NCBI GenBank assembly: GCA_022769485.1
Contig: JALEJU010000032.1
Span: 16,440-80,439, forward strand
Origin: Bacillota bacterium
GTDB lineage: Bacteria; Bacillota; Clostridia; Peptostreptococcales; Anaerovoracaceae
Direction of reading: 5' to 3'
DNA: 64,000 bases
Position numbers and translations under genes: made by a program. The notes beneath the pieces are model-generated. The model was not told where the DNA came from, did not search any database, and saw nothing but the letters and a program-made list of their open reading frames with translations. Positions 15,228 to 37,781 of this stretch are shown here, one piece after another (position 1 is the first letter of the stretch; the number at the start of each line of letters is the position of its first letter).

Positions 15228-16562
15228 ATGGAAAAAACCTTTCATATTCAGACCTTCGGATGCCAGATGAACGAGCGGGATTCCGAAACGCTGGCAGGAA
15301 TGCTGATACAAAAAGGGTATACGGAAACCCCGGTGCGGGCGCAGGCGGATATTATTATCGTCAACACCTGCAGTGTGCGGGACAATGCGGATAAGCGTTT
15401 TTTCGGCACGTTGGGGCAGATTAAGAAAATCAAGGAGCAAAATCCGGAACTGATTACAGCCGTATGCGGGTGCATGATGCAGCAGCAGCACATTGTGGAC
15501 ACGGTAAAAAGCAAATATCCTTGGGTGGATTTGGTGTTCGGTACGCATAATATCCATGAATTTCCCCGCCTTTTGGAAAACATAGAAAATGAGAAAAAAA
15601 AGCTGGTGGCCGTTTGGGAAGACGGCGGCGAAATTGTGGAAGGCCTGCCTTCGGAACGCAGATATCCTTTTAAATCATTTGTGAATATCATGTACGGCTG
15701 CAACAATTTCTGCACTTACTGCATCGTTCCTTATACAAGAGGGCGGGAACGCAGCCGCAAGCCCTCGGAAATCCGAAAGGAAGCAGAGGCGCTGGTAAAA
15801 GACGGCGTGAAAGAGATTACTCTCCTGGGGCAGAATGTGAATTCCTATCGGGGCAGTGAAGATGCCGATTCCGATTCTTATATGGATTTTTCCGATTTGC
15901 TTCGCATGTTAAACGGGATTCCGGGGTTGGAGAGGATTCGTTTTATGACGTCCCACCCTAAGGATCTTTCGGAACGCCTGATTCAGGCTTACGGAGATTG
16001 TGAAAAACTTTGCCGCCACATTCATCTGCCGGTGCAGTCCGGCAGCAGTCGGATTTTAAAAGAAATGAATCGCCGTTACGGCAAAGAAGAATATCTGGAT
16101 CTTGTAAGACGGCTGCGTGAGGCAGTGCCGGATATCGCCATTACTACGGATATTATCGTGGGGTTTCCCGGGGAGACCGAAGAGGATTTTTCAGAAACTC
16201 TGGATTTGGTCAAAAAGGCAGGCTTTGATTCGGCTTTTACATTCCTGTATTCCATTCGGAAAGGAACCCCTGCAGCGGAATATGAAAATCAGATTCCGGA
16301 GGAAATAAAACACGAGCGGTTTAATCGCTTAGTGGACGCGGTCAATGAAATTTCGGCATCGAAGAATAGAGAAATGGTAGGGAAGGTTGCAGATGTGCTG
16401 GCGGAGGGACAGAGCAAGAACGACCCGACCATTAACACCGGAAGAACCAGCGGGCACAAGCTGGTGAATTTCAAAGGGAAGCCGGGGATTACGGGACAGA
16501 TTGTTAAGGTAAAGATTACCGGAAGCAATACGTTCAGCTTGGTTGGAGAACAAGAGGAATAG
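15228..16562 (+). CDS. miaB: tRNA-2-methylthio-N6-dimethylallyladenosine synthase (radical SAM methylthiotransferase)
   Basis: FHIQTFGCQMN at the N-terminus, the CNNFCTYC radical SAM motif, and a C-terminal TRAM domain. Confidence 0.9.
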   Translation: MEKTFHIQTFGCQMNERDSETLAGMLIQKGYTETPVRAQADIIIVNTCSVRDNADKRFFGTLGQIKKIKEQNPELITAVCGCMMQQQHIVDTVKSKYPWVDLVFGTHNIHEFPRLLENIENEKKKLVAVWEDGGEIVEGLPSERRYPFKSFVNIMYGCNNFCTYCIVPYTRGRERSRKPSEIRKEAEALVKDGVKEITLLGQNVNSYRGSEDADSDSYMDFSDLLRMLNGIPGLERIRFMTSHPKDLSERLIQAYGDCEKLCRHIHLPVQSGSSRILKEMNRRYGKEEYLDLVRRLREAVPDIAITTDIIVGFPGETEEDFSETLDLVKKAGFDSAFTFLYSIRKGTPAAEYENQIPEEIKHERFNRLVDAVNEISASKNREMVGKVADVLAEGQSKNDPTINTGRTSGHKLVNFKGKPGITGQIVKVKITGSNTFSLVGEQEE

Positions 16563-16712: not shown

Positions 16713-18194
16713 ATGGCAACGGGAACAAATATCTATCAAGATATTGCAGCACGGACGGCGGGCAATATTTATATGGGGATTGTAGGGCCGGTTCGCACGG
16801 GAAAATCCACATTTATCAAGCGTTTTATGGATCTTCTGGTTTTGCCGAATGTGGCCGATGCCTACGAAAAAGAGCGAGTGCAGGATGAATTGCCCCAGAG
16901 CGGCAGCGGAAGAACGATTATGACCACAGAACCGAAGTTTATTCCTGCGGAAGCGGTTTCTTTGAATTTGCCGGGAAATCTGCATTTAAAGGTCAGATTG
17001 GTAGACTGCGTGGGGTATATGGTCAAAAGCGCCATGGGGCACATGGAAAACGGACAGTCGCGTATGGTTCATACTCCATGGAAAGAAGAAGCTATGTCTT
17101 TTGAAGAAGCAGCAGAGTACGGGACGCGGAAAGTGATTAACGACCATTCTACGGTTGGGATTGTAGTCACCACAGACGGAAGCATCGGTGATTTTGCCAG
17201 AGAGGATTATCTGGAAGCAGAAAAGCGTGTGGTTGAAGAATTGTCAAAACAGGGAAAACCTTTTGTAGTGGTTTTGAATTCAGCTGTGCCGGAAAGCCCC
17301 CGGACGGCGGCATTGGCAGCGGAAATGGAAGAAACTTACGGAGTGCCGGTGGAAGCGGTAAACTGTGCGATGATGAATACCGCGCAGCTGGAACGTATTT
17401 TAACCCGCGTATTAACCCAGTTCCCGGCTATGGAAATCGGGTTCTGCCTTCCGGGATTTATTGAAGGACTTCCCAATAAACATCGGATCAAGAGCGGCAT
17501 TTTAGAAAGTATTCGCTGCTTCTGCGGCGATTTTGAAACCGTTCGGGATGTGGAAAATGCCGTTTCTCTGCTGGCGGACGGAGCGGTAATACAGTCGGCA
17601 AAAATCGAATCTGTAGATTTAGGAAAGGGATCTGTTCGTGTGGTTATGGAGCCTGTATCCGGTCTGTTTTACCAGGTTATCGGTGAAATTATGGATTGCG
17701 AAATTCAGGATGACAGCTCCTTCTTTGCCCTTCTGAAGGATTGTGCCGGAGCAAAACGGTCTTATGACAAGCTGGCTGCGGCCTTAGAGCAAGTAGAGGA
17801 GGAGGGTTACGGCATCGTGCAGCCGGAGCTGACGGATATGGTATTGGAAGAACCGGAAATTTTCAAACAGGGAAGCAAGTTCGGGGTTCGTTTGAGAGCA
17901 CAGGCGCCGTCTCTGCACATTATAAAAACCAGCGTCAGCACAGAAGTGGCTCCTGTTGTAGGCAGCGAACGGCAGAGTGAAGATCTGATCGAATATCTGC
18001 TTTCGGAGTTTGAAAGCGATCCGGCTAAAATCTGGGATACTAATATTTTCGGAAAATCTTTGCAGGAAATGGTGACAGAGCAGATGGAAAACAAATTGGC
18101 CAATGTGCCTCATCACATTCGAAGCAAGCTTCGGAATTCGCTGCAGAAAATTTCCGATGAAGGAAAGGAATATCTGATCTGCGTAGTTTTATAA
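16713..18194 (+). CDS. spoIVA: stage IV sporulation protein A
   Basis: The product is collinear with Bacillus SpoIVA as I remember it: IYQDIAARTAGNIYMGIVGPVRTGKSTFIKRFM, TIMTTEPKF, RLVDCVGY, and the C-terminal LICVVL. Confidence 0.95.
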   Translation: MATGTNIYQDIAARTAGNIYMGIVGPVRTGKSTFIKRFMDLLVLPNVADAYEKERVQDELPQSGSGRTIMTTEPKFIPAEAVSLNLPGNLHLKVRLVDCVGYMVKSAMGHMENGQSRMVHTPWKEEAMSFEEAAEYGTRKVINDHSTVGIVVTTDGSIGDFAREDYLEAEKRVVEELSKQGKPFVVVLNSAVPESPRTAALAAEMEETYGVPVEAVNCAMMNTAQLERILTRVLTQFPAMEIGFCLPGFIEGLPNKHRIKSGILESIRCFCGDFETVRDVENAVSLLADGAVIQSAKIESVDLGKGSVRVVMEPVSGLFYQVIGEIMDCEIQDDSSFFALLKDCAGAKRSYDKLAAALEQVEEEGYGIVQPELTDMVLEEPEIFKQGSKFGVRLRAQAPSLHIIKTSVSTEVAPVVGSERQSEDLIEYLLSEFESDPAKIWDTNIFGKSLQEMVTEQMENKLANVPHHIRSKLRNSLQKISDEGKEYLICVVL

Positions 18195-28303: not shown

Positions 28304-28455
28304 AATGTGATTGTTTCCGTTTTCTTAAAAAAGCTGTTCTGCTTTTCCGAGGATTGCAATCGGAGGCGGAATCGGATAAAATAAAGGCGAAAGGAATTAT
28401 TTTGGAATTCCGGCGGTATTTCAAGCCGGGTGGAGCACAAATGGAGGTTTATTTT

Positions 28456-29190
28456 ATGGAATCCCATATTATTGTTACAGAAAGCGCCTCGAATCTTCGA
28501 TCCTTAGGGAGAAGATCGCTGGCGGGGAACTGGAAAGCAGCAGCGCTGATTTCGTTTTTGCTATTATTATTGGCGGCAGGCCCGCAGGTTCTTCTTTTTT
28601 ATCTGTTTGGTGAAAATCCGACAATGGAGTCGCTGAGCAATTTCTATTTGCTCTTGGTATATGGACCTTTGTACCTGGGATATGCAGGGTTTATCCGGTG
28701 TTTGGTTCGCCGGCAGGAAGCCCGTGTGGGGCAGCTGTTTGACGGCTTTGAAATGTTTTTAAAAGCCTTTTCGCTGTATTTCATGATGATTTTATTTACG
28801 ACATTATGGACTTTCCTGTTGGTGATTCCCGGCATTATCGCATCGTACCGGTATTCGCTGGCGTTTTATCTGCTCCTGGACGATCCGGAAATGGGCGTTA
28901 TGGATGCTATCCGAAAAAGCAAGGATCTCATGTACGGGAACAAATGGAAGCTGTTTTGTCTGGATTTGTCCTTTATCGGCTGGAGCTTTCTTGCGGTGCT
29001 TACCTGCGGAATCGGATTTATCTGGGTTCTTCCTTACATGGAAACAAGTCGGTTTTCCTTCTATGAAATCATCGTTGGAAATTTAAAAATCCGACATGAA
29101 TATGTGGAAACGGAGGAGGCTTATGAACAGCCTGACAGCAGATCCGATGAAAGCGAAGAGCCGAAGTCGGAAGCGGACGAAATAAAATAA
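28456..29190 (+). CDS. DUF975-family membrane protein
   Basis: The N-terminal LGRRSLAGNWKAA pattern, four to five TM helices, and an acidic C-terminal tail fit DUF975. ATG 28456 is preceded by GGAGG. Confidence 0.65.
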   Translation: MESHIIVTESASNLRSLGRRSLAGNWKAAALISFLLLLLAAGPQVLLFYLFGENPTMESLSNFYLLLVYGPLYLGYAGFIRCLVRRQEARVGQLFDGFEMFLKAFSLYFMMILFTTLWTFLLVIPGIIASYRYSLAFYLLLDDPEMGVMDAIRKSKDLMYGNKWKLFCLDLSFIGWSFLAVLTCGIGFIWVLPYMETSRFSFYEIIVGNLKIRHEYVETEEAYEQPDSRSDESEEPKSEADEIK

Positions 29191-29953: not shown

Positions 29954-30150
29954 AACTCTCACGGCAGGGGTTTGTTCTCTGCCGCGGTTTTTCTATTATG
30001 CGGAATTATCGTAAACGATACCTCCGGAACAGAAAACCAAGTCTGCTTGCGGAAATTTAATCGCCGGAGACGACTTTCTTATAGTGCAGAATTCCTTTTT
30101 CGGCGCATAGAATAGATGAGCCAGAAAAAAATAGAAAAAGGAGGATGCTT

Positions 30151-31260
30151 ATGAGCGGAATGGAACGGCACCTGTTTCCGGGAAACAACACGCCGTCAGG
30201 CTTTTTTTCTTATTACGAATATATTTTAAACCAGGATGAAGGGCAGAAAATCTACTGTTTGAAGGGCGGTCCTGGCGTAGGAAAATCCACTTTGATCGGT
30301 AGAATCGGAAAACGGTTTCTTGAACAGGGAGAAGATGTAGATTTTTTCCATTGTTCCGCAGATCGGAATTCATTGGATGCGATCCTGCTGAAAAAGCGAA
30401 ATATAGCCGTATTGGACGGCACATCGCCTCATGTAATAGATCCGGTGAACCCGGGAGCGGTGGATACCATTGTCAATCTGGGAGATTGCTGGAATGAACA
30501 CGGGATTCGGGCAAACCGCCACCGGATTATAGAGAGTCATAAGCGATGCTCTTCGCTGTTTTCAGGAGCATATCATTACCTGGCGGCAGCAGAACAGCTT
30601 TACGATAATCTGCGGGAAATCTATTCTTTCCGCATAAAACCGGAAGAGTATACAAAATTGGCGGCGGGGTGGATTGGAAAAGAGCTTGCGCATAAACAGA
30701 TTGCTTCACGGCGAGGAGCAACTAAGAAGTTTTTTGCTTGTGCAGTCACACCGCAGGGAATCGTAAGCGAACTTTCTTCTCTCCTAAATTGTGTGAAGAA
30801 AGTGTACCGTATCGAAACCTGTGTGGGTCTGGAGCCGGAGAGAATATTGAAACCGTTTGCTGAAAGCGCTTTAAATCGGGGATTTGATCTGGAATTGTAC
30901 TACTCTCCGTTGAAACCGGAAACAGGGCTGGAACACATTATTTGTCCGGAATTGGGTCTTGCCCTTATAACGGATTCCGATTTGCAGCATTGGAGTGGTG
31001 CGGAAGACGGAAGAAAACAGGAAATAATTACGGTAAATCTATGCGAAAAAGCGGGAACTGTGATTTCAGGAGCATTAGCGGAACTGGAGCGGGACAGCAG
31101 GGAACGCTTTTATCCGCTGTTGGATCAGGCGGTATACTGCTTGTCTAAGGCGAAAGAAGAGCATGACCGCCTTGAGAGTTATTATATTCCACATATTGAT
31201 TTTGACAAAGTCAGAAACCTTGAAAAGCAGATTACAGAAGAAATTTCCGAGATGGGGTAA
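30151..31260 (+). CDS. P-loop ATPase of the uncharacterised PRK06851-like family
   Basis: FPGNNTPSGFFSYYEYIL followed by Walker A GGPGVGKST. GGAGG lies 6 nt before ATG 30151. The family assignment is from memory. Confidence 0.65.
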   Translation: MSGMERHLFPGNNTPSGFFSYYEYILNQDEGQKIYCLKGGPGVGKSTLIGRIGKRFLEQGEDVDFFHCSADRNSLDAILLKKRNIAVLDGTSPHVIDPVNPGAVDTIVNLGDCWNEHGIRANRHRIIESHKRCSSLFSGAYHYLAAAEQLYDNLREIYSFRIKPEEYTKLAAGWIGKELAHKQIASRRGATKKFFACAVTPQGIVSELSSLLNCVKKVYRIETCVGLEPERILKPFAESALNRGFDLELYYSPLKPETGLEHIICPELGLALITDSDLQHWSGAEDGRKQEIITVNLCEKAGTVISGALAELERDSRERFYPLLDQAVYCLSKAKEEHDRLESYYIPHIDFDKVRNLEKQITEEISEMG

Positions 31261-31287: not shown

Positions 31288-31316
31288 TTGCTATCCTGCC
31301 GTAAAACGGATATAAT
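31288..31316 (+). promoter_or_regulatory. sigma-A type promoter for the racemase/ligase operon
   Basis: TTGCTA, a 17-nt spacer, then TATAAT (31311-31316). Confidence 0.55.
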
Positions 31317-31363
31317 GGAAAAACGCAGAATATTTTGGTTACATGTGACGGAGAACCGCATTT

Positions 31364-32470
31364 ATGCAGGAAAATCAATTGCAGAAGCAGTATCCGCGTT
31401 TGGTTGTGGATCTGAAAAAATTGAGACATAATATTGACGAAATTGTCGATCGCTGCGCCGGCTGCGGGATCGCTGCAACCGGCGTGGTAAAGGGATTTAA
31501 CGGGCTTCCGGAAATTTTGAGCGTATATAAGGATTGCGGCACCCTGGGCATTGCGTCCTCCCGGCTGGAACACCTGGAGCAGGCCGGAAAGCTGGGACTG
31601 AAAGGGCCGTTTCTCAGTATCAGAATTCCCATGCTGTCCGAAATCCCCGATCTGGTTCGTATTGCCGATTGGAGCTTAGAAAGCGAGCGTATCGTTTTAG
31701 AAGCAATCGAAGATGAATGCCGCAGACAGAAGCGGCGGCATGGTGCGATCCTCATGGTGGATTTGGGGGATCTTCGGGAAGGGTTTTGGAATAAAGAGGA
31801 ACTGCTGGCTTTGGCCGAGGAAACAGAGCGGAAGTTTGAATGGATCGATTTAATCGGAATCGGTACAAACTTGAATTGTTACGGTTCTATTGCGCCTACG
31901 GCGGAAAACCTGCAGCAGCTGGTGGATTTGGCGCGGCAAGTAGAAATTCGTATCGGAAGAAAACTGCAGATTGTCTCCGGAGGAAGCACGACTTCGCTTC
32001 CCCTGGTATACAAAGGGGCAATGCCGCGGGGAATAAACCATCTTCGAATTGGAGAAGCCATGCAGACCGCTGCGGATTTGGAGGCGTTCTGGGGAGTTTC
32101 TACACCGGAGCTGCACAAAGATGTTTTTACATTGCAGGCGGAAATCGTGGAATTAAAGGACAAGCCATCGTATCCGGTAGGTGAAATCCGTGTAGACGGA
32201 TTCGGAAAGACAGAATCAAAATATGTGGATCGGGGGATTCGGCGGCGGGCTATTGCAGCTGTCGGGCGGTTGGATTTTTCCTTCTGCAGCCAGCTTCTTC
32301 CGGTAAATTCAGGAATTGAAGTTCTGGGTGCTTCCAGTGACCATCTCATTCTGGATGTGGAGGAAGCCAAAAATGAAATCAAAATGGGCTCTATCGTAGA
32401 GTTTCGTATGTACTACGGGCCGATGCTCTATTTGACCAATTCGGGATACATATCATTGGTTTATAAATAG
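31364..32470 (+). CDS. alanine-racemase-fold PLP enzyme (ornithine/lysine racemase-like, YhfX-like)
   Basis: N-terminal TIM-barrel pattern with the candidate PLP lysine in TGVVKGFNG, then a C-terminal beta domain. The size and layout resemble the ornithine/lysine racemase group rather than Alr. Confidence 0.7.
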   Translation: MQENQLQKQYPRLVVDLKKLRHNIDEIVDRCAGCGIAATGVVKGFNGLPEILSVYKDCGTLGIASSRLEHLEQAGKLGLKGPFLSIRIPMLSEIPDLVRIADWSLESERIVLEAIEDECRRQKRRHGAILMVDLGDLREGFWNKEELLALAEETERKFEWIDLIGIGTNLNCYGSIAPTAENLQQLVDLARQVEIRIGRKLQIVSGGSTTSLPLVYKGAMPRGINHLRIGEAMQTAADLEAFWGVSTPELHKDVFTLQAEIVELKDKPSYPVGEIRVDGFGKTESKYVDRGIRRRAIAAVGRLDFSFCSQLLPVNSGIEVLGASSDHLILDVEEAKNEIKMGSIVEFRMYYGPMLYLTNSGYISLVYK

Positions 32471-32499
32471 GTTGCGGCAGATAAAAGGGAGGCGTAAAA

Positions 32500-33708
32500 A
32501 TGGGAGAAAAAAAGGCGTTTGTTCCTCTTCTCTTTGCAGGGGATATCAATGTATACAGTTTAGCCAGAGCGTTTCATGAAGCATATGGAATAAAACCGTA
32601 TGCTTACGGAAAATATCAGACAGGCCCCTGTTGGGAAAGTAAAATTATGCACTACCGGGCGAACCCCAGAGCGGACGAAAAAGATACTTTTATCCGGCTG
32701 GTTTCGGAATTTGCCAGAGAGCATGAAAAGATACAGGTTCTGCTTATGGGCTGCGGGGACAGCTATGTACAGCTGATCAGCGAAAACCGGGAGCATTTCC
32801 CGGAGAATGTAGTAGTGCCTTATATTCCTGCCGATATGATGAACGATCTGATTCATAAAGAAAAGTTTTACGCTTTGTGTGAAAAAGTAGGGGTGGATTA
32901 CCCGGACACCTTTGTGCACCGCAAAGAAATGGGGCACGATTTTACGCTTCCCTTCGGTGGGCCGTTTATCATAAAGCCGTCCAACGGAATCGAGTATTGG
33001 AGGCATCCGTATCCTACGCAGAAGAAGGTGTATAAGGAAGATACTATCGACGATGTAAAACGGGTTCTGGACGACATTTACGGCGCCGGTTACGAAGACA
33101 GCGTGATCATTCAAAATTTTATTCCCGGTGACGATACTTACATGCGGGTTTTGACCAATTATTCGGACAAGCACGGAAAGGTAAAACTCATGTGCTTAGG
33201 GCATGTACTTCTGGAAGAGCATACCCCTCACGGATTGGGGAACCACGCGGTTATCCTTACGGAAGCAAACGAGGAACTGCAGGAGCGGTATAAAACGCTT
33301 CTGGAGGAAATGGGATATGTAGGCTTTTCCAATTTCGATATTAAATACGACCAGCGGGACGGAAAATACAAGGCGTTTGAAATCAACACCCGGCAGGGTC
33401 GAAGCAACTTCTATGTAACCGGCGCCGGCGCAAACATTGCGGAATATGTGGTAAAAGACTGGATTTACGATGAACCGTTAAATTTTCGGGCAGTCAACCA
33501 GGAATCTCTCTGGCTGGTTGTCCCCAAAGGAGTCGCATTCCGATATATCAAGCCGAAGAAGTATCAGGAACGCATGAAACAGCAGATCCGGCTGGGAAAT
33601 GTGGTGAATCCTCTGTACTATGGCCCGGACAATGGCTTAAAGCGTCGTTTGAGGTTATTTAAATCGCAGATAGGGCATTACGTTAAGTTTAAGAAGTACC
33701 TGAAATAG
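32500..33708 (+). CDS. ATP-grasp carboxylate-amine ligase, D-aspartate ligase (Aslfm)-like
   Basis: ATP-grasp motifs (IIKPSNG, IIQNFIPGDD, FEINTRQGRS). The layout matches my recollection of Enterococcus faecium D-aspartate ligase, and an aspartate racemase gene lies adjacent. Confidence 0.65.
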   Translation: MGEKKAFVPLLFAGDINVYSLARAFHEAYGIKPYAYGKYQTGPCWESKIMHYRANPRADEKDTFIRLVSEFAREHEKIQVLLMGCGDSYVQLISENREHFPENVVVPYIPADMMNDLIHKEKFYALCEKVGVDYPDTFVHRKEMGHDFTLPFGGPFIIKPSNGIEYWRHPYPTQKKVYKEDTIDDVKRVLDDIYGAGYEDSVIIQNFIPGDDTYMRVLTNYSDKHGKVKLMCLGHVLLEEHTPHGLGNHAVILTEANEELQERYKTLLEEMGYVGFSNFDIKYDQRDGKYKAFEINTRQGRSNFYVTGAGANIAEYVVKDWIYDEPLNFRAVNQESLWLVVPKGVAFRYIKPKKYQERMKQQIRLGNVVNPLYYGPDNGLKRRLRLFKSQIGHYVKFKKYLK

Positions 33709-33720
33709 GGAGGATTGGAT

Positions 33721-34431
33721 ATGTGGGAAAGGAACGATAAGGTTTTAGGTGTAATCGGCGGAATGGGGCCTTTGGCGACGCAGCTTTTTTACCGGCAGGT
33801 AATTGACAGGACTGTGGCTTGTCGGGATCAGGATCATATCGACATGATTCTTTTAAACCACGCTACTATGCCGGATCGAACGGCGGCCATTCTCAGCGGA
33901 AAAACGGAAGAGTTGTTCGCACTGCTGCTGACCGATGCAAAAAAGCTGGAAGCTCTGGGAGCCGTGGCCATCGCTATCCCCTGCAATACATCCCATTATT
34001 TTGTGCCCCGGCTGCAGGAGCAGCTGTCCATTCCCATTATTCACATGATTCGGGAGGCTGCGAAAGAAGTGGCATCCCGGGGGAAAGCGGAGCGTGTGGG
34101 AATTCTGGCTACAGACGGGACGATTCAAAGCGGAATGTACCAAAAAGCCTGCCGGGAGGCGGGGTTAACGCCTGTGGTTCCCACCAGAGAAAAACAGGCG
34201 TTGGTAATGAAGATCATTTATGACGGTGTAAAAAACGGCGGGACTATCGATTATAACGACTTTATTGCTGTCGAGGGAGATCTGGCGGCGCAGGGCTGTC
34301 AGGCGGCGATTCTGGCCTGTACGGAATTGTCGTGCTTTAAGGAAATGTATCATTTGCCGAATTATTATGTGGACGCAATGGAAGTTTTAGCAGTTCGTTC
34401 CATCGAGGCATGCGGAAAGAGAGTGAAGTAG
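33721..34431 (+). CDS. aspartate racemase (Asp/Glu/hydantoin racemase family)
   Basis: GVIGGMGPLAT, with the two catalytic cysteine regions IPCNTSH and LACTELS. GGGAGGA lies before ATG 33721. Confidence 0.85.
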   Translation: MWERNDKVLGVIGGMGPLATQLFYRQVIDRTVACRDQDHIDMILLNHATMPDRTAAILSGKTEELFALLLTDAKKLEALGAVAIAIPCNTSHYFVPRLQEQLSIPIIHMIREAAKEVASRGKAERVGILATDGTIQSGMYQKACREAGLTPVVPTREKQALVMKIIYDGVKNGGTIDYNDFIAVEGDLAAQGCQAAILACTELSCFKEMYHLPNYYVDAMEVLAVRSIEACGKRVK

Positions 34432-34436
34432 AGAAT

Positions 34437-35942
34437 ATGAAACTGAAGAAATATATTGATATGCTGGAGCGGGAAGATTTGCTGCGGGAAACGTCTTCCT
34501 GCGGGAAATGCGTAGAACAGGAAGTGGAATATCTTTCCTTTGATTCAAAGGACATGAGAGAAAACGGCCTTTTTGTCTGCAAGGGAGCGCATTTTAAACC
34601 GGAATACTTACAGGAAGCTTTAAACAGAGGCGCTTTCTGCTATTTAGCAGAGCAAGCCGTCCCCATAGAAGGAAACGTTCCTTTTGTATTGGTAACGGAT
34701 ATTCGGAAAGCTATGGCTCTTTTGGCAAATGCGTATTATAAAGAGGCGTGGAGAGAACTGAAAACCATCGGCATTACGGGAACAAAGGGAAAATCAACAA
34801 CGACGTATTATGTACGTTCGATTTTAGACAGTTATCTGGAATCCCAGGGAAAGCCAAAAAGTGCGGTTATCTCCGGAATTGACGTGTACGACGGCGTGAT
34901 CTGCGAGGAATCACATTTAACCACACCGGAGGCGATAGCCCTGCACCGGCATTTTCGCAATGCGGTGGATTCGGGGATTTCTTATGTGGAAATGGAGGTT
35001 TCCAGCCAGGCTCTCCGATATTACAGAACCTTGGGAATTCAATATGATGTGGGCTGTTTCCTGAATATCGGAACCGACCATATCAGCCCGATTGAGCATA
35101 AAGACTTCGATGATTATTTTGACGCCAAGCTGACACTGATGAAGCAGTGCAGGACGGCCTGCGTAAATCTCAATGCGGATCATTGTCAGGAGGTCTGCGA
35201 TACAGCCAGGGAACATGCGGATCTTTCCACATTCGGAACGGACGAGCGGGCGGATTACTATGCTCACCATATTGTGAAAACGGAGCGGGGAATCGCTTTT
35301 TCTGTGCGTATGGCTGCGAAAAACAGGAAACCGGAGCGAAATGAGAATTTTACGCTCAGTATGCCGGGGTTGTTCAATGTGGATAATGCGTTGGCCGCTA
35401 TCAGCATTTGCGATGCGCTGGATGTTCCCGTGCAGTATATGAAAGAGGGACTGGAAAAGGCCGCTGTTCCGGGGAGGATGGAAGTGTTCCGGGGGGGAGC
35501 GGGTTCTCCTACTGTAATCGTGGATTACGCCCATAACCGTATGAGCTTCGAAAAGTTGTTTACATCGGCGATTCGGGAATATCCGGACAAGAAAATTATA
35601 TCCATTTACGGCTGTCCTGGTAAAAAAGCGCAGGCAAGGCGTAAAGAGCTGGCTGAAATTGCCGGTCGCTATGCGGCAGTGGTTTATGTAACGGAGGAAG
35701 ACGCGGGGGAGGAACCTGTGGAATCCATCTGCAGGGAAATTGCAGCTAACCTGAGAGGGCTGCCCTGCCGCTGTGAGATCATCACGGATCGGGGAGAGGC
35801 CATCCGCAAAGCCATTGAAGAAAGCGGCGAGGATACGTTGATTCTTGTGACCGGAAAGGGGAGGGAAACACGGCAGAAGCGCGGTGTGGAGTACATCGAC
35901 TGTCCTTCCGATGTAGAGTATGTAGAACGTTATTTAAAATAG
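34437..35942 (+). CDS. murE: MurE-like UDP-N-acetylmuramoyl-tripeptide synthetase without the DNPR (meso-DAP) motif
   Basis: Mur-ligase P-loop GITGTKGKSTT, and DYAHN. At the position of the E. coli DNPR motif the sequence reads EDAG (35697-35708). Confidence 0.8.
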   Translation: MKLKKYIDMLEREDLLRETSSCGKCVEQEVEYLSFDSKDMRENGLFVCKGAHFKPEYLQEALNRGAFCYLAEQAVPIEGNVPFVLVTDIRKAMALLANAYYKEAWRELKTIGITGTKGKSTTTYYVRSILDSYLESQGKPKSAVISGIDVYDGVICEESHLTTPEAIALHRHFRNAVDSGISYVEMEVSSQALRYYRTLGIQYDVGCFLNIGTDHISPIEHKDFDDYFDAKLTLMKQCRTACVNLNADHCQEVCDTAREHADLSTFGTDERADYYAHHIVKTERGIAFSVRMAAKNRKPERNENFTLSMPGLFNVDNALAAISICDALDVPVQYMKEGLEKAAVPGRMEVFRGGAGSPTVIVDYAHNRMSFEKLFTSAIREYPDKKIISIYGCPGKKAQARRKELAEIAGRYAAVVYVTEEDAGEEPVESICREIAANLRGLPCRCEIITDRGEAIRKAIEESGEDTLILVTGKGRETRQKRGVEYIDCPSDVEYVERYLK

Positions 35943-36005: not shown

Positions 36006-37781
36006 ATGAAAAAAAGGGGAATTTTCGCGGTTTGCGCCGCTTTAGCGGTTCTGGTGCCGACGGTTTTGGGAGGCTTTGCCGTAAATGCGTTTGCGGCGGA
36101 TAACGATAAAGGGGATCGATTAAGGGGCGTATGGGTAGCTACGGTTTACCGATTGGATTATCCGAAAACCGCAAGTACAGACGAAGCGGTTTTAAAACGG
36201 CAGGCTGACGAAATTCTGGACGGAGCCGCTTCTATGGGATTGAACGCGGTATTTTTTCAGGTTCGGCCCGGCTCGGATGCTTTTTACGATTCAAAGATTT
36301 ACCCTTGGAGTCAATATTTGACAGGAACGCAGGGAACTGCGCCGGAAAACGGCTTTGATCCGTTGGAATATTGGACAGAAGGCGCTCATGCCAGAGGAAT
36401 GGAACTGCATGCCTGGATCAATCCTTATCGAATTACGAAAAACGGAGATTCTGAGTATGCGTCTCTGGCGGAGGAAAATCCGGCAAAGCAGCACCCGGAC
36501 TATGTAATCCGCAGCACGGACGGGAATTATTATTATGATCCGGCCGTGCCGGAAGTGCGGGATTTGGTGGTAGAAGGGGCTTTGGAAATCGTAAATCATT
36601 ACGACGTGGACGGAATCCATTTAGATGATTACTTCTATCCTTCTCAGGACTTTCCGGATGACGAATCGTTTGCCTGTTACGGAGAAGGGTTTGCGGATAA
36701 AGGCGACTGGCGCAGAGAAAACGTAAATCTCTTAATAAAGGATCTGGATCGGCAGCTTCACGCGGCAGACCCGAATCTGTCTTTCGGAGTAAGCCCTTCG
36801 GGTATCTGGGCAAATAAAAGCACAAGACCGGAAGGAAGCGATACGAGGGGAAGTGAATCGTATAACAAGCAGTATGCGGATACCAGAGCCTGGGTCAAAG
36901 AAGGCTGGGTAGATTACATTGCTCCGCAGATTTACTGGAATATTGGATATTCTGTTGCGGATTACAAAATTCTGACGGAGTGGTGGAATGACGCTGTGGA
37001 CGGCACAGATACGGAGCTTTACATCGGCATGGCCGATTACCGCACGGTGGATGCGGCAGCCGAAAGCGCTTTTTACGGAACCGGGGAGATTAAACGGCAG
37101 CTTGATTTGAATCGTACATATGATAATGTTTCGGGAGAAATTCATTTCCGTTACGGCTCTCTGGTCAGCGGAGAGGGACTGGATCAAATGCTGGCTTCTT
37201 ATTATCGGTTCGAATCGGGAATTCGGTTTTCTGATCTTTCCGAAAGCAAGTGGGCGGAAGATTATATCTATAAACTGGCAGAACAAGGTATTGTCAACGG
37301 CATGGGCGAAAACCGCTTTGCTCCGGCTGCTTCCGTAAAACGAAGCGAGTATATTAAGATGCTCATGAATACCTTTGGATATGACAGTGATCCGTTTGTC
37401 TCCGGCAAGGCAGTGTATACGGATGTGCCGGATTCTTATTGGGGGTATCGCTGGATTGCCTGCGCAAAAGAGCAGGGAATTCTTGAAAACAGCGCGGCAT
37501 TTCGGCCGGAAGAGCCCATCACCCGCGAGGATATGGCGCTGTATTCATATCGGGCGATAAAAGGAACGGGGACGCTGCTTGGTTCCGGTTCAAAAGAAAT
37601 TGCTTTTGCGGATGAGAATGAAATTTCACCCGCGGCTGAAAACGCTGTGCGAATGTTAGTGGGAGCGGGTGTTTTAAACGGATATCCGGACGGAAGCTTC
37701 GGGGCGAAGAAAACCAGTACTCGGGCAGAAGCGTGCAAAGTAATCTGCGTTTTGCTGGATGCGTATAGCGAATCCCATTAG
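36006..37781 (+). CDS. secreted glycoside-hydrolase-like (GHL10/DUF187) protein with C-terminal SLH domains
   Basis: A signal peptide, then LRGVWVATV...LNAVFFQVRP...HAWINPYR, typical of GHL10. The C-terminal repeats FSDL..WAEDYIYKLAEQGIVNG, YTDVP..YWGYRWI and FADE..ISPAAENAV look like SLH domains. Confidence 0.75.
   Translation: MKKRGIFAVCAALAVLVPTVLGGFAVNAFAADNDKGDRLRGVWVATVYRLDYPKTASTDEAVLKRQADEILDGAASMGLNAVFFQVRPGSDAFYDSKIYPWSQYLTGTQGTAPENGFDPLEYWTEGAHARGMELHAWINPYRITKNGDSEYASLAEENPAKQHPDYVIRSTDGNYYYDPAVPEVRDLVVEGALEIVNHYDVDGIHLDDYFYPSQDFPDDESFACYGEGFADKGDWRRENVNLLIKDLDRQLHAADPNLSFGVSPSGIWANKSTRPEGSDTRGSESYNKQYADTRAWVKEGWVDYIAPQIYWNIGYSVADYKILTEWWNDAVDGTDTELYIGMADYRTVDAAAESAFYGTGEIKRQLDLNRTYDNVSGEIHFRYGSLVSGEGLDQMLASYYRFESGIRFSDLSESKWAEDYIYKLAEQGIVNGMGENRFAPAASVKRSEYIKMLMNTFGYDSDPFVSGKAVYTDVPDSYWGYRWIACAKEQGILENSAAFRPEEPITREDMALYSYRAIKGTGTLLGSGSKEIAFADENEISPAAENAVRMLVGAGVLNGYPDGSFGAKKTSTRAEACKVICVLLDAYSESH

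Follow-up and report, generated by a model that had tools for sequence, protein, structure and literature searches.

A MurE paralog linked to a predicted D-aspartate ligase suggests two peptidoglycan chemotypes in spore-forming Anaerovoracaceae

What kind of peptidoglycan does a bacterium build when its genome encodes two different ligases for the third residue of the stem peptide? The question arises from a 64-kb window (the whole stretch of DNA analyzed here: 64,000 nucleotides, positions 16,440 to 80,439 of contig JALEJU010000032.1 in the Bacillota bacterium assembly GCA_022769485.1) and, within it, from a four-gene cassette. A preliminary description of this DNA read the cassette as predicting a peptidoglycan that lacks meso-diaminopimelate (DAP) and is bridged by a D-amino acid. 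We recovered every element on which that description was built – the four open reading frames (ORFs), all on the forward strand, a promoter-like site in front of them, two ATP-grasp motifs and an EDAG motif in the Mur ligase – at the same positions. In order, the genes encode an Orr-like racemase, an ATP-grasp ligase, an aspartate (Asp) racemase and a MurE paralog that we term MurE2:

31288-31316, + strand: sigma-70-like promoter consensus match, TTGCTA-17-TATAAT (10/12 positions matched; a consensus match only)
31364-32470, + strand: Orr-like fold-type III pyridoxal phosphate (PLP) racemase, 368 aa (PF01168, 66 bits; NF040742, 351.6 bits)
32500-33708, + strand: ATP-grasp carboxylate-amine ligase, predicted D-aspartate ligase (Asl-like), 402 aa (from AlphaFold fold and gene context)
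33715-34431, + strand: PLP-independent two-cysteine Asp racemase, 238 aa (TIGR00035, PF01177; likelier start ATG at 33721)
34410-35942, + strand: MurE2, 510 aa (TIGR01085, 303.5 bits; likelier start ATG at 34437)
35697-35708, + strand: EDAG replacing DNPR, within the family motif TEEDxGEE (aligned to solved MurE structures)

Our best explanation, to which we assign a probability of about 0.6, is that the cassette is a module for a vegetative-wall peptidoglycan of the lysine (Lys) or ornithine (Orn) plus D-Asp type, and that the canonical, DAP-adding MurE of the same genome is retained for spore peptidoglycan.

MurE2 scores above the TIGR01085 (murE) cut-off of 257.3 bits, covers model positions 2-470 of 472, and hits PF08245 and PF02875. 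HMMER alignments with solved MurE structures begin at residue 38-42 and run to ~494, and the N-terminal UDP-binding domain is kept. Models of rival families scored far below their cut-offs on the same protein – 66-67 versus 163 bits for TIGR01499 (FolC), 98 versus 850 for TIGR02068 (cyanophycin), and 30 versus 800 for MurT – which settles an early concern that the ligase might prove to be of the FolC, CapB or cyanophycin type rather than a true member of the MurE family.

Every DAP-ligase equivalog model fell below its cut-off on MurE2, and the best equivalog, PRK14022 (L-Lys ligase), reached 344 bits against a cut-off of 536. The HMMER alignments place EDAG opposite the DNPR of solved MurEs and the DDPR of Thermotoga, the Thermotoga maritima MurE (4BUB) being the second-best solved match (1.9e-47). 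MurE2 has therefore lost the DNPR that marks the meso-DAP-adding subclass, as the preliminary description had noticed. Ruane et al. (PMC3829189) assign binding of the DAP carboxylate to the Asn and Arg of DNPR and describe, for the Lys/Orn-accepting MurE of Staphylococcus aureus, a pocket whose acidity favors these substrates. The counterpart of S. aureus Glu-460 appears to be retained in MurE2 (within GKGRE), and the site is strongly acidic. With both carboxylate-binding residues gone and an acidic site, MurE2 does not look like a DAP-type ligase. A tree separated MurE2 and canonical MurE into distinct clades with 100/100 support. Nearly all ATP-grasp-linked MurE2 proteins carry TEEDxGEE, GCPGxKAxxRR and GKGRETRQKR, where the canonical counterparts are TSDNPRxE, GCGGDRDxxKR and GKGHE.

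We counted cassette conservation over 80 related loci and gene distribution over 151 genomes of the family. For both ligases the nearest homologs belong to Anaerovoracaceae, known formerly as Family XIII, and are found in Anaerovorax, Aminipila, Sinanaerobacter, Bacilliculturomica, Zhenpiania and Clostridium aminobutyricum. In 66 of the 80 loci MurE2 comes after the ATP-grasp gene; most of the others end at a contig edge. An Asp racemase lies between the two in 54, and the Orr-like gene is found in about 12, which form a nearly monophyletic subclade. The four genes had been taken for one unit; the invariant core is instead the ATP-grasp gene plus MurE2, with the Asp racemase as the usual companion and the Orr-like gene as an add-on in one subclade. 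Nor is the cassette confined to this genome: the trait is widespread in the family, and many relatives have a MurE2-type ligase as their only MurE.

An ATP-grasp ortholog is present in 62 of the 151 genomes. Among these, a MurE2-type ligase is the only MurE in 38 and stands alongside a canonical MurE in 21; in none is the canonical MurE alone. Many of the 38 genomes are at least 95% complete, and in most of those listed MurE2 lies within ~2.3 kb of the ATP-grasp gene. Since a MurE2-type protein is the sole TIGR01085 match in 38 of the 62, it would be able to serve as a cell's only residue-3 ligase, and MurE2 appears to be a distinct MurE clade with that capacity.

The genome that contains the window (a 1.49-Mb assembly of 42 contigs, estimated complete and Anaerovoracaceae-like) is not one of the MurE2-only genomes. 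The preliminary description had suggested looking for a second, canonical murE in the dcw cluster, and a profile search of the genome located one there, carrying SDNPRNE (G000:C11:24598-26007; 484.8 bits), with a penicillin-binding protein (PBP) gene before it and murF-mraY-murD after it. The cassette MurE is therefore a paralog and not the sole residue-3 ligase. The genome also holds Alr, Ddl, MurI, DapB, ArgB, a Spo0A box, SpoIVA and a single MurF. Strict PROSITE-style pattern scans, which found DapB, returned no DapA, DapF or LysA, a result that given their strictness is no evidence of absence. The earlier idea of a non-DAP organism thus survives in part: the MurE2 cassette predicts a non-DAP stem, but the dcw cluster still encodes an intact DNPR MurE, and comparison across the family ties that copy to sporulation.

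That tie emerged when SpoIVA was scored, as a single sporulation marker, in the same 151 genomes. SpoIVA is present in 30 of the 33 genomes with both canonical and MurE2-type ligases and in 1 of the 71 with the MurE2 type alone, that one being 63% complete. Within the set carrying an ATP-grasp ortholog, SpoIVA split 21/0 versus 2/38 (Fisher p = 2e-14, not phylogenetically corrected). Both exceptions come from fragmented assemblies that contain additional low-scoring pieces; in one of the two, the extra piece is probably a canonical copy truncated at a contig edge. Four genera (g8, g10, g21 and g24) hold both states, and the two traits co-vary in each. Genomes with the canonical MurE alone are SpoIVA-positive in just 9 of 37 cases, and a DAP MurE acting as sole ligase therefore needs no sporulation. 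The ten named genomes and the window's own genome were all SpoIVA-positive (11/11) and so uninformative as a first test of the link.

The simplest reading of this distribution is that MurE2 builds the vegetative wall and that the DAP ligase is kept only while spores are made. Genomes that do not sporulate and have the MurE2 type alone still need a vegetative wall, which excludes the opposite assignment. As the DNPR MurE is kept and follows sporulation, the prediction is of two peptidoglycan chemotypes in one organism.

The same distribution bears on a second view, in which the canonical DAP MurE builds a normal wall here and the cassette is accessory, conditional, or a leftover in the course of being lost or fixed; as an accessory it might serve in remodelling under stress or in resistance to lysozyme, phage or bacteriocins. 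The canonical murE is indeed intact and in the dcw cluster, and DAP-only and MurE2-only states both occur in the family, so a two-MurE genome may be transitional. However, the MurE2 type is the only MurE in 38 relatives and able to carry all wall synthesis there, and the canonical copy is lost where SpoIVA is lost (70 of 71 genomes, with four within-genus contrasts), a pattern that simple drift does not account for. All four cassette ORFs are, moreover, intact and tightly packed. We regard an accessory role as quite unlikely.

Truncated forms of the canonical enzyme were observed in some relatives. In Anaerovorax odorimutans, C. aminobutyricum and Zhenpiania hominis (L093, L094 and L095), the dcw cluster contains a DNPR MurE of 392-405 aa that starts at the P-loop and is without the N-terminal UDP-binding domain. 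These copies are monophyletic, their ORFs are intact, murF follows directly, and no upstream remnant is present; they look functional rather than decayed. Similar truncated MurEs occur in four further genomes (G052, G062, G078 and G111), and matches in another two (G084 and G089) are interrupted by stop codons. Every genome with a truncated copy is SpoIVA-positive, and the near-complete assemblies among these also hold MurE2 and the ATP-grasp gene; in G078 and G089 (67-73% complete) neither gene was seen. MurE2 accompanies the truncated enzyme in A. odorimutans and C. aminobutyricum. Separately, the canonical murE of Anaerovorax sp. IOR16 (L106/L107; G007:C11:166340-167732) is in two pieces by frameshift, as a pseudogene or through an assembly error.

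What would MurE2's partner contribute? The ATP-grasp protein carries the motifs IIQNFIPGDD (33106-33135) and FEINTRQGRS (33376-33405), matches no Pfam or NCBIfam model, and has no sequence relative in the PDB. Its AlphaFold model has three domains (pLDDT 90.1, pTM 0.88), and the top PDB structural neighbours are all ATP-grasp enzymes: the L-amino-acid ligase 3VOT, biotin carboxylase, PurK and PylC. A grouping with cyanophycin- or glutathione-type ligases had been named as a result that would speak against a wall role; neither cyanophycin synthetase nor glutathione synthetase is among the top 50 structural neighbours. Many homologs carry the JGI pipeline name 'D-aspartate ligase', the sole name-level link of this family to Asl. 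No characterised Asl was found among 20 distant cluster representatives, which were metagenome entries only, and a Coriobacteriia-seeded search gave environmental metagenome-assembled genomes (MAGs) and then Anaerovoracaceae.

The neighbouring Asp racemase is more readily assigned. It matches PF01177 (138.8 bits), passes TIGR00035 (213.5 bits against a cut-off of 93.1), aligns with the Pyrococcus Asp racemase 1JFL (1e-44), and has both catalytic Cys motifs (PCNTSH and ACTELS). Its pairing with the ATP-grasp ligase, proposed at the outset, is supported by conserved adjacency and by natural gene fusions: two proteins (P0249 and P0273) join an ATP-grasp domain to an Asp/Glu racemase. As cited in PMC13631041, Bellais et al. 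(2006) showed that the Enterococcus faecium enzyme Aslfm acts as a D-aspartate ligase on a side-chain amine. We favor a D-aspartate ligase here because of the Asp racemase adjacency, the racemase fusions and the dependence on a non-DAP MurE, and by analogy with Aslfm the enzyme is predicted to act on the free side-chain amine of Lys or Orn. The original prediction of a non-DAP stem with a D-Asp side branch is likewise strengthened, in that the ATP-grasp gene never occurs with a DAP-type MurE alone and is tied to an Asp racemase.

More distant relatives of the ATP-grasp protein have other partners. In P0289, P0342 and P0325 (31-34% identity) an N-terminal DegT-type sugar aminotransferase domain is fused to it, and P0325 additionally has a C-terminal FemAB/GNAT domain; the wider family probably also decorates amino sugars.

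Together, a Mur ligase and an ATP-grasp enzyme could also suggest a product other than peptidoglycan, such as a cyanophycin-like or other D-amino-acid peptide. Cyanophycin synthetase unites ATP-grasp and Mur-ligase modules, MurE2 gives the weak 98-bit match noted above, and two racemases could feed a D-amino-acid polymer. Against this, MurE2 keeps its UDP-binding domain and passes the murE cut-off while scoring far under those for cyanophycin, FolC and MurT, and the structural neighbours of the ATP-grasp model point elsewhere. The MurE2 type is, above all, the only MurE in many complete genomes, by which this alternative is largely refuted; we give it hardly any credence.

From the gene identities, their family-wide co-occurrence, the fusions and the sporulation link, we infer the substrates, the bond formed and the wall served by each MurE as follows. 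In the vegetative wall, MurE2 would add Lys or Orn as residue 3, and the single MurF of the genome would add D-Ala-D-Ala. The Asp racemase would supply D-Asp, which the ATP-grasp ligase would join to the free side-chain amine of residue 3, giving an A4-type (Lys/Orn-D-Asp) cross-bridge. The DNPR MurE of the dcw cluster would still make meso-DAP precursors, kept for the spore cortex and/or the germ cell wall.

Several observations weigh against this scheme. The dcw position of the canonical gene would naively mark that copy, rather than MurE2, as the housekeeping enzyme. SpoIVA is one marker, and the counts ignore phylogeny. Several SpoIVA-positive genomes retain only the N-terminally truncated DNPR MurE, whose activity is putative. 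About 20 of the 80 cassettes are without an adjacent Asp racemase, and the racemase of the window also passes the model for the cysteate racemase CuyB (NF052483; 207 versus 190 bits), either because the model is perhaps too inclusive or because the enzyme might accept the sulfonate analogue of Asp. A search of the open literature turned up no account of the wall chemistry of Anaerovorax, Aminipila, Mogibacterium or Family XIII.

Which amino acid would MurE2 add? We would bet evenly on L-ornithine as its residue-3 substrate, and we hold L-lysine to be only slightly less likely. In two genomes MurE2 is fused in frame to ArgB (L085:9997-12396 and L079:4883-7309; proteins of 800-809 aa), the ArgB part scoring 239 bits on TIGR00761 against a cut-off of 151; these fusions link wall synthesis to ornithine biosynthesis. 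The cassette of an Aminipila locus is followed by genes for an ornithine carbamoyltransferase and for a protein of the amino-acid kinase family, probably a carbamate kinase. Along with the Orr-family racemase in the operon, these are three hints that favor ornithine, none of them decisive.

The first gene of the cassette is the hardest to place. Its product matches NF040742 (Orr) over the full length, with the PLP lysine in a VVKGF context, but its 351.6 bits lie below the equivalog cut-off of 480. It belongs to a cassette-linked clade of 54-58% identity. The Orr family occurs in 120 of the 151 family genomes, often in multiple copies, and the family's catabolic Orr is another paralog, 38-41% identical to the window protein; in relatives an OraE-like hit lies 3-5 kb from that paralog. 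In the genome of the window, where the cassette gene is the sole member of the Orr family, a search with PF09043 (oraSE aminomutase) gave no match, while the same search matched 13 of 16 relatives as a positive control. Nor was an aminomutase found in three relatives that have the cassette copy of Orr only (G108, G023 and G025).

Two candidate functions were rejected. A catabolic ornithine racemase is contradicted by the score below the cut-off, by the lack of an aminomutase in the genome, and by the presence of a different paralog beside OraE; because the genome is without an ornithine or lysine aminomutase, a role in known ornithine or lysine fermentation is excluded. Replacement of alanine racemase was set aside as well, a canonical Alr (VVKADAYGHG) being encoded on contig C42. 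Judging from its family, the Orr-like enzyme probably has a basic amino acid (Orn or Lys) as its substrate, and it most likely supplies or balances D/L-Orn or D/L-Lys for the pathway – the weakest step of the scheme.

It could instead be a general Orn/Lys racemase, functionally separate from the wall genes, in which case the true unit has three genes. Its presence in just ~12 of the 80 cassettes, in a nearly monophyletic subclade, and the abundance of the Orr family across 120 of the 151 genomes, often in several copies, both fit such independence. Yet it shares the strand of the ligase gene and precedes it by 29 nt, behind the only promoter-like site; every member of the subclade, which spans several genera, keeps this position; and an aminomutase pathway that could use D-Orn or D-Lys is absent from the genome. 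We therefore think a separate function somewhat unlikely.

In another alternative, which extends rather than opposes our best explanation, the Orr-like racemase makes D-Orn or D-Lys that MurE2 or the ATP-grasp ligase puts into the wall, so that stems would carry a D-diamino acid besides or replacing the L-form. T. maritima offers a precedent, with a Lys/Orn racemase that supplies D-Lys to a MurE accepting it (PMC9790342, PMC3829189). The racemase gene here is the first of the operon, 29 nt before the ligase gene, and the sole Orr-family gene of a genome in which the known catabolic pathway is excluded; the structural neighbours of the ATP-grasp model include PylC, an enzyme that couples D-ornithine to the side-chain amine of lysine. 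On the other hand, the score of PylC does not exceed those of generic ATP-grasp enzymes, the MurE2 pocket has identical motifs in cassettes with and without the racemase, the Asp racemase is retained in every cassette that has the Orr-like gene, and other paralogs from the Orr family (44-53% identity) are frequent elsewhere in genomes of Anaerovoracaceae, with or without a cassette. Incorporation of a D-diamino acid is accordingly unlikely in our estimation. A combined version, in which DAP serves the spore, the vegetative peptidoglycan contains Orr-fed D-Orn or D-Lys beside D-Asp, and the truncated MurE of the relatives is a spore-specific enzyme without a UDP-binding domain, is a long shot; if true, its D-Orn/D-Lys plus D-Asp chemotype would lie outside the Schleifer-Kandler scheme.

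One other locus (L118) brings the two protein families close together. An 815-aa MurE-like protein with a ~300-residue N-terminal extension without a Pfam match (L118:3986-6433, - strand) is encoded 1.3 kb from a divergent Orr-like racemase, 34% identical to that of the window (L118:7693-8847, + strand).

MurE2-type ligases also occur without the ATP-grasp partner. In 32 additional genomes one MurE2-type gene is present without any close ortholog of the ATP-grasp gene, and in most of those fetched it lies at the locus marked by DUF975 and PRK06851 genes that is described below. Among L109-L124, which are without an ATP-grasp gene, at least six motifs occupy the DNPR position (TAEDPGTE, TELDPGME, TEQDIGTD, TERDPGKE, TSDDPAEE and VPNNPAEE), and GKGHE is altered too. 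Such variety suggests many different residue-3 specificities inside one family, and thus that residue-3 chemistry has diversified there repeatedly. Outside the family, Clostridium paraputrificum NCTC11833 (L081), a species of Clostridium sensu stricto, has the ATP-grasp/Asp racemase/MurE2 core together with a canonical DNPR MurE. In the tree its MurE2 falls among those of Anaerovoracaceae, beside the ArgB-fused ones, which suggests horizontal acquisition. Two cultured relatives, Sinanaerobacter chloroacetimidivorans and Bacilliculturomica massiliensis, likewise have both MurE types.

Within the window, the cassette genes are closely packed, with gaps of 29 nt between the Orr-like racemase and ligase genes and 6 nt between the ligase and Asp racemase genes, and with a 22-nt overlap of the Asp racemase and MurE2 ORFs as called. 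Promoter-like matches are common hereabouts (11 in the region versus 7.0 +/- 2.6 in shuffles), and no convincing terminator was found in the sequence downstream of MurE2. A gene for a GHL10 (YngK-like) protein that resembles glycoside hydrolases and has SLH domains and a signal peptide (36006-37781) starts 63 nt past MurE2 and may be co-transcribed with the cassette; it is a non-conserved neighbour among relatives. The PepF, RluD and 4-hydroxybutyrate (abfD/abfT/4hbD) genes found downstream in relatives were considered as cassette partners and rejected as family-level synteny. SpoIVA itself (TIGR02836, 658 bits) is encoded at 16725-18191, ~13 kb upstream of the cassette. Two genes lie nearer on that side:

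28354-29190, + strand: DUF975 membrane protein (PF06161, 135 bits)
30145-31260, + strand: PRK06851-family P-loop ATPase (NF005320, 290 bits, under its cut-off)

The ATPase gene is upstream of the cassette in 37 of the 80 loci, and the DUF975 gene is adjacent or near in most. Both adjoin MurE2-type genes even in genomes without the ATP-grasp and racemase genes, a neighbourhood that may be plain synteny or may reflect an unrecognised functional link to wall synthesis.

The identity of residue 3 governs cross-linking, susceptibility to lytic enzymes, endolysins and antibiotics, and sensing by NOD1 (DAP) versus NOD2. The wall chemistry of Anaerovoracaceae, anaerobes common in the gut, the rumen and the mouth, has hardly been studied, and the TEEDxGEE of MurE2, the Asl-like ligase and the DNPR MurE provide gene markers for predicting chemotype from a genome. 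The distribution of these markers indicates that the family switches chemotype repeatedly, and the retention of the DAP ligase along with sporulation suggests that the cortex stayed constrained to DAP after the vegetative wall had changed. The idea of such a constraint is said to have rested so far on 1970s biochemistry in one Bacillus relative; it is now testable in cultured Clostridia.

That relative is the closest parallel for the two-wall organization. Work of the Tipper laboratory in 1969-1976 reportedly described, in Lysinibacillus (Bacillus) sphaericus, a Lys-D-Asp vegetative wall, a meso-DAP cortex and a DAP-adding enzyme induced at sporulation. Two residue-3 ligases, two chemotypes and a DAP type tied to sporulation are implied here as well, by the co-distribution of MurE types and SpoIVA, although what was shown biochemically in a member of the Bacilli is inferred from genomes in Clostridia (Anaerovoracaceae). 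The DAP ligase is here the dcw-cluster copy, and in some relatives it is without its N-terminal domain.

For the vegetative chemistry, the nearest counterparts are Aslfm/Racfm of E. faecium and AslA/RacD of Lactococcus lactis, which make A4-alpha (L-Lys-D-Asp) peptidoglycan. Three like activities – a non-DAP MurE, an Asp racemase and an ATP-grasp D-Asp ligase – are predicted for the cassette, and racemase and ligase genes are neighbours here too. MurE2 differs in forming a separate clade, with TEEDxGEE in place of a DNPA/DDPN-type motif and a score under the PRK14022 cut-off. The racemase and ligase genes here share one operon with MurE2 and an extra PLP racemase, a DAP-type MurE is retained, and Orn possibly takes the place of Lys.

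The Orr-like racemase has two reference points. T. maritima likewise pairs a basic-amino-acid racemase with a non-DAP MurE, one that adds both L-Lys and D-Lys (PDB 4BUB), and NF040742 gives a sub-threshold match in its genome; Thermotoga differs in having DDPR where MurE2 has EDAG and in having no D-Asp ligase. The Orr of Acetoanaerobium sticklandii (NF040742), which catalyzes the first step of oxidative ornithine fermentation, shares the fold and family of the Orr-like racemase, whereas the latter falls below the 480-bit cut-off and is not beside oraSE in a genome that has no aminomutase. The Thermotoga racemase and MurE genes are not known to lie in one operon, as they do here. The cassette, as we read it, works like the known Lys/Orn-D-Asp pathway but with an uncharacterised MurE clade.

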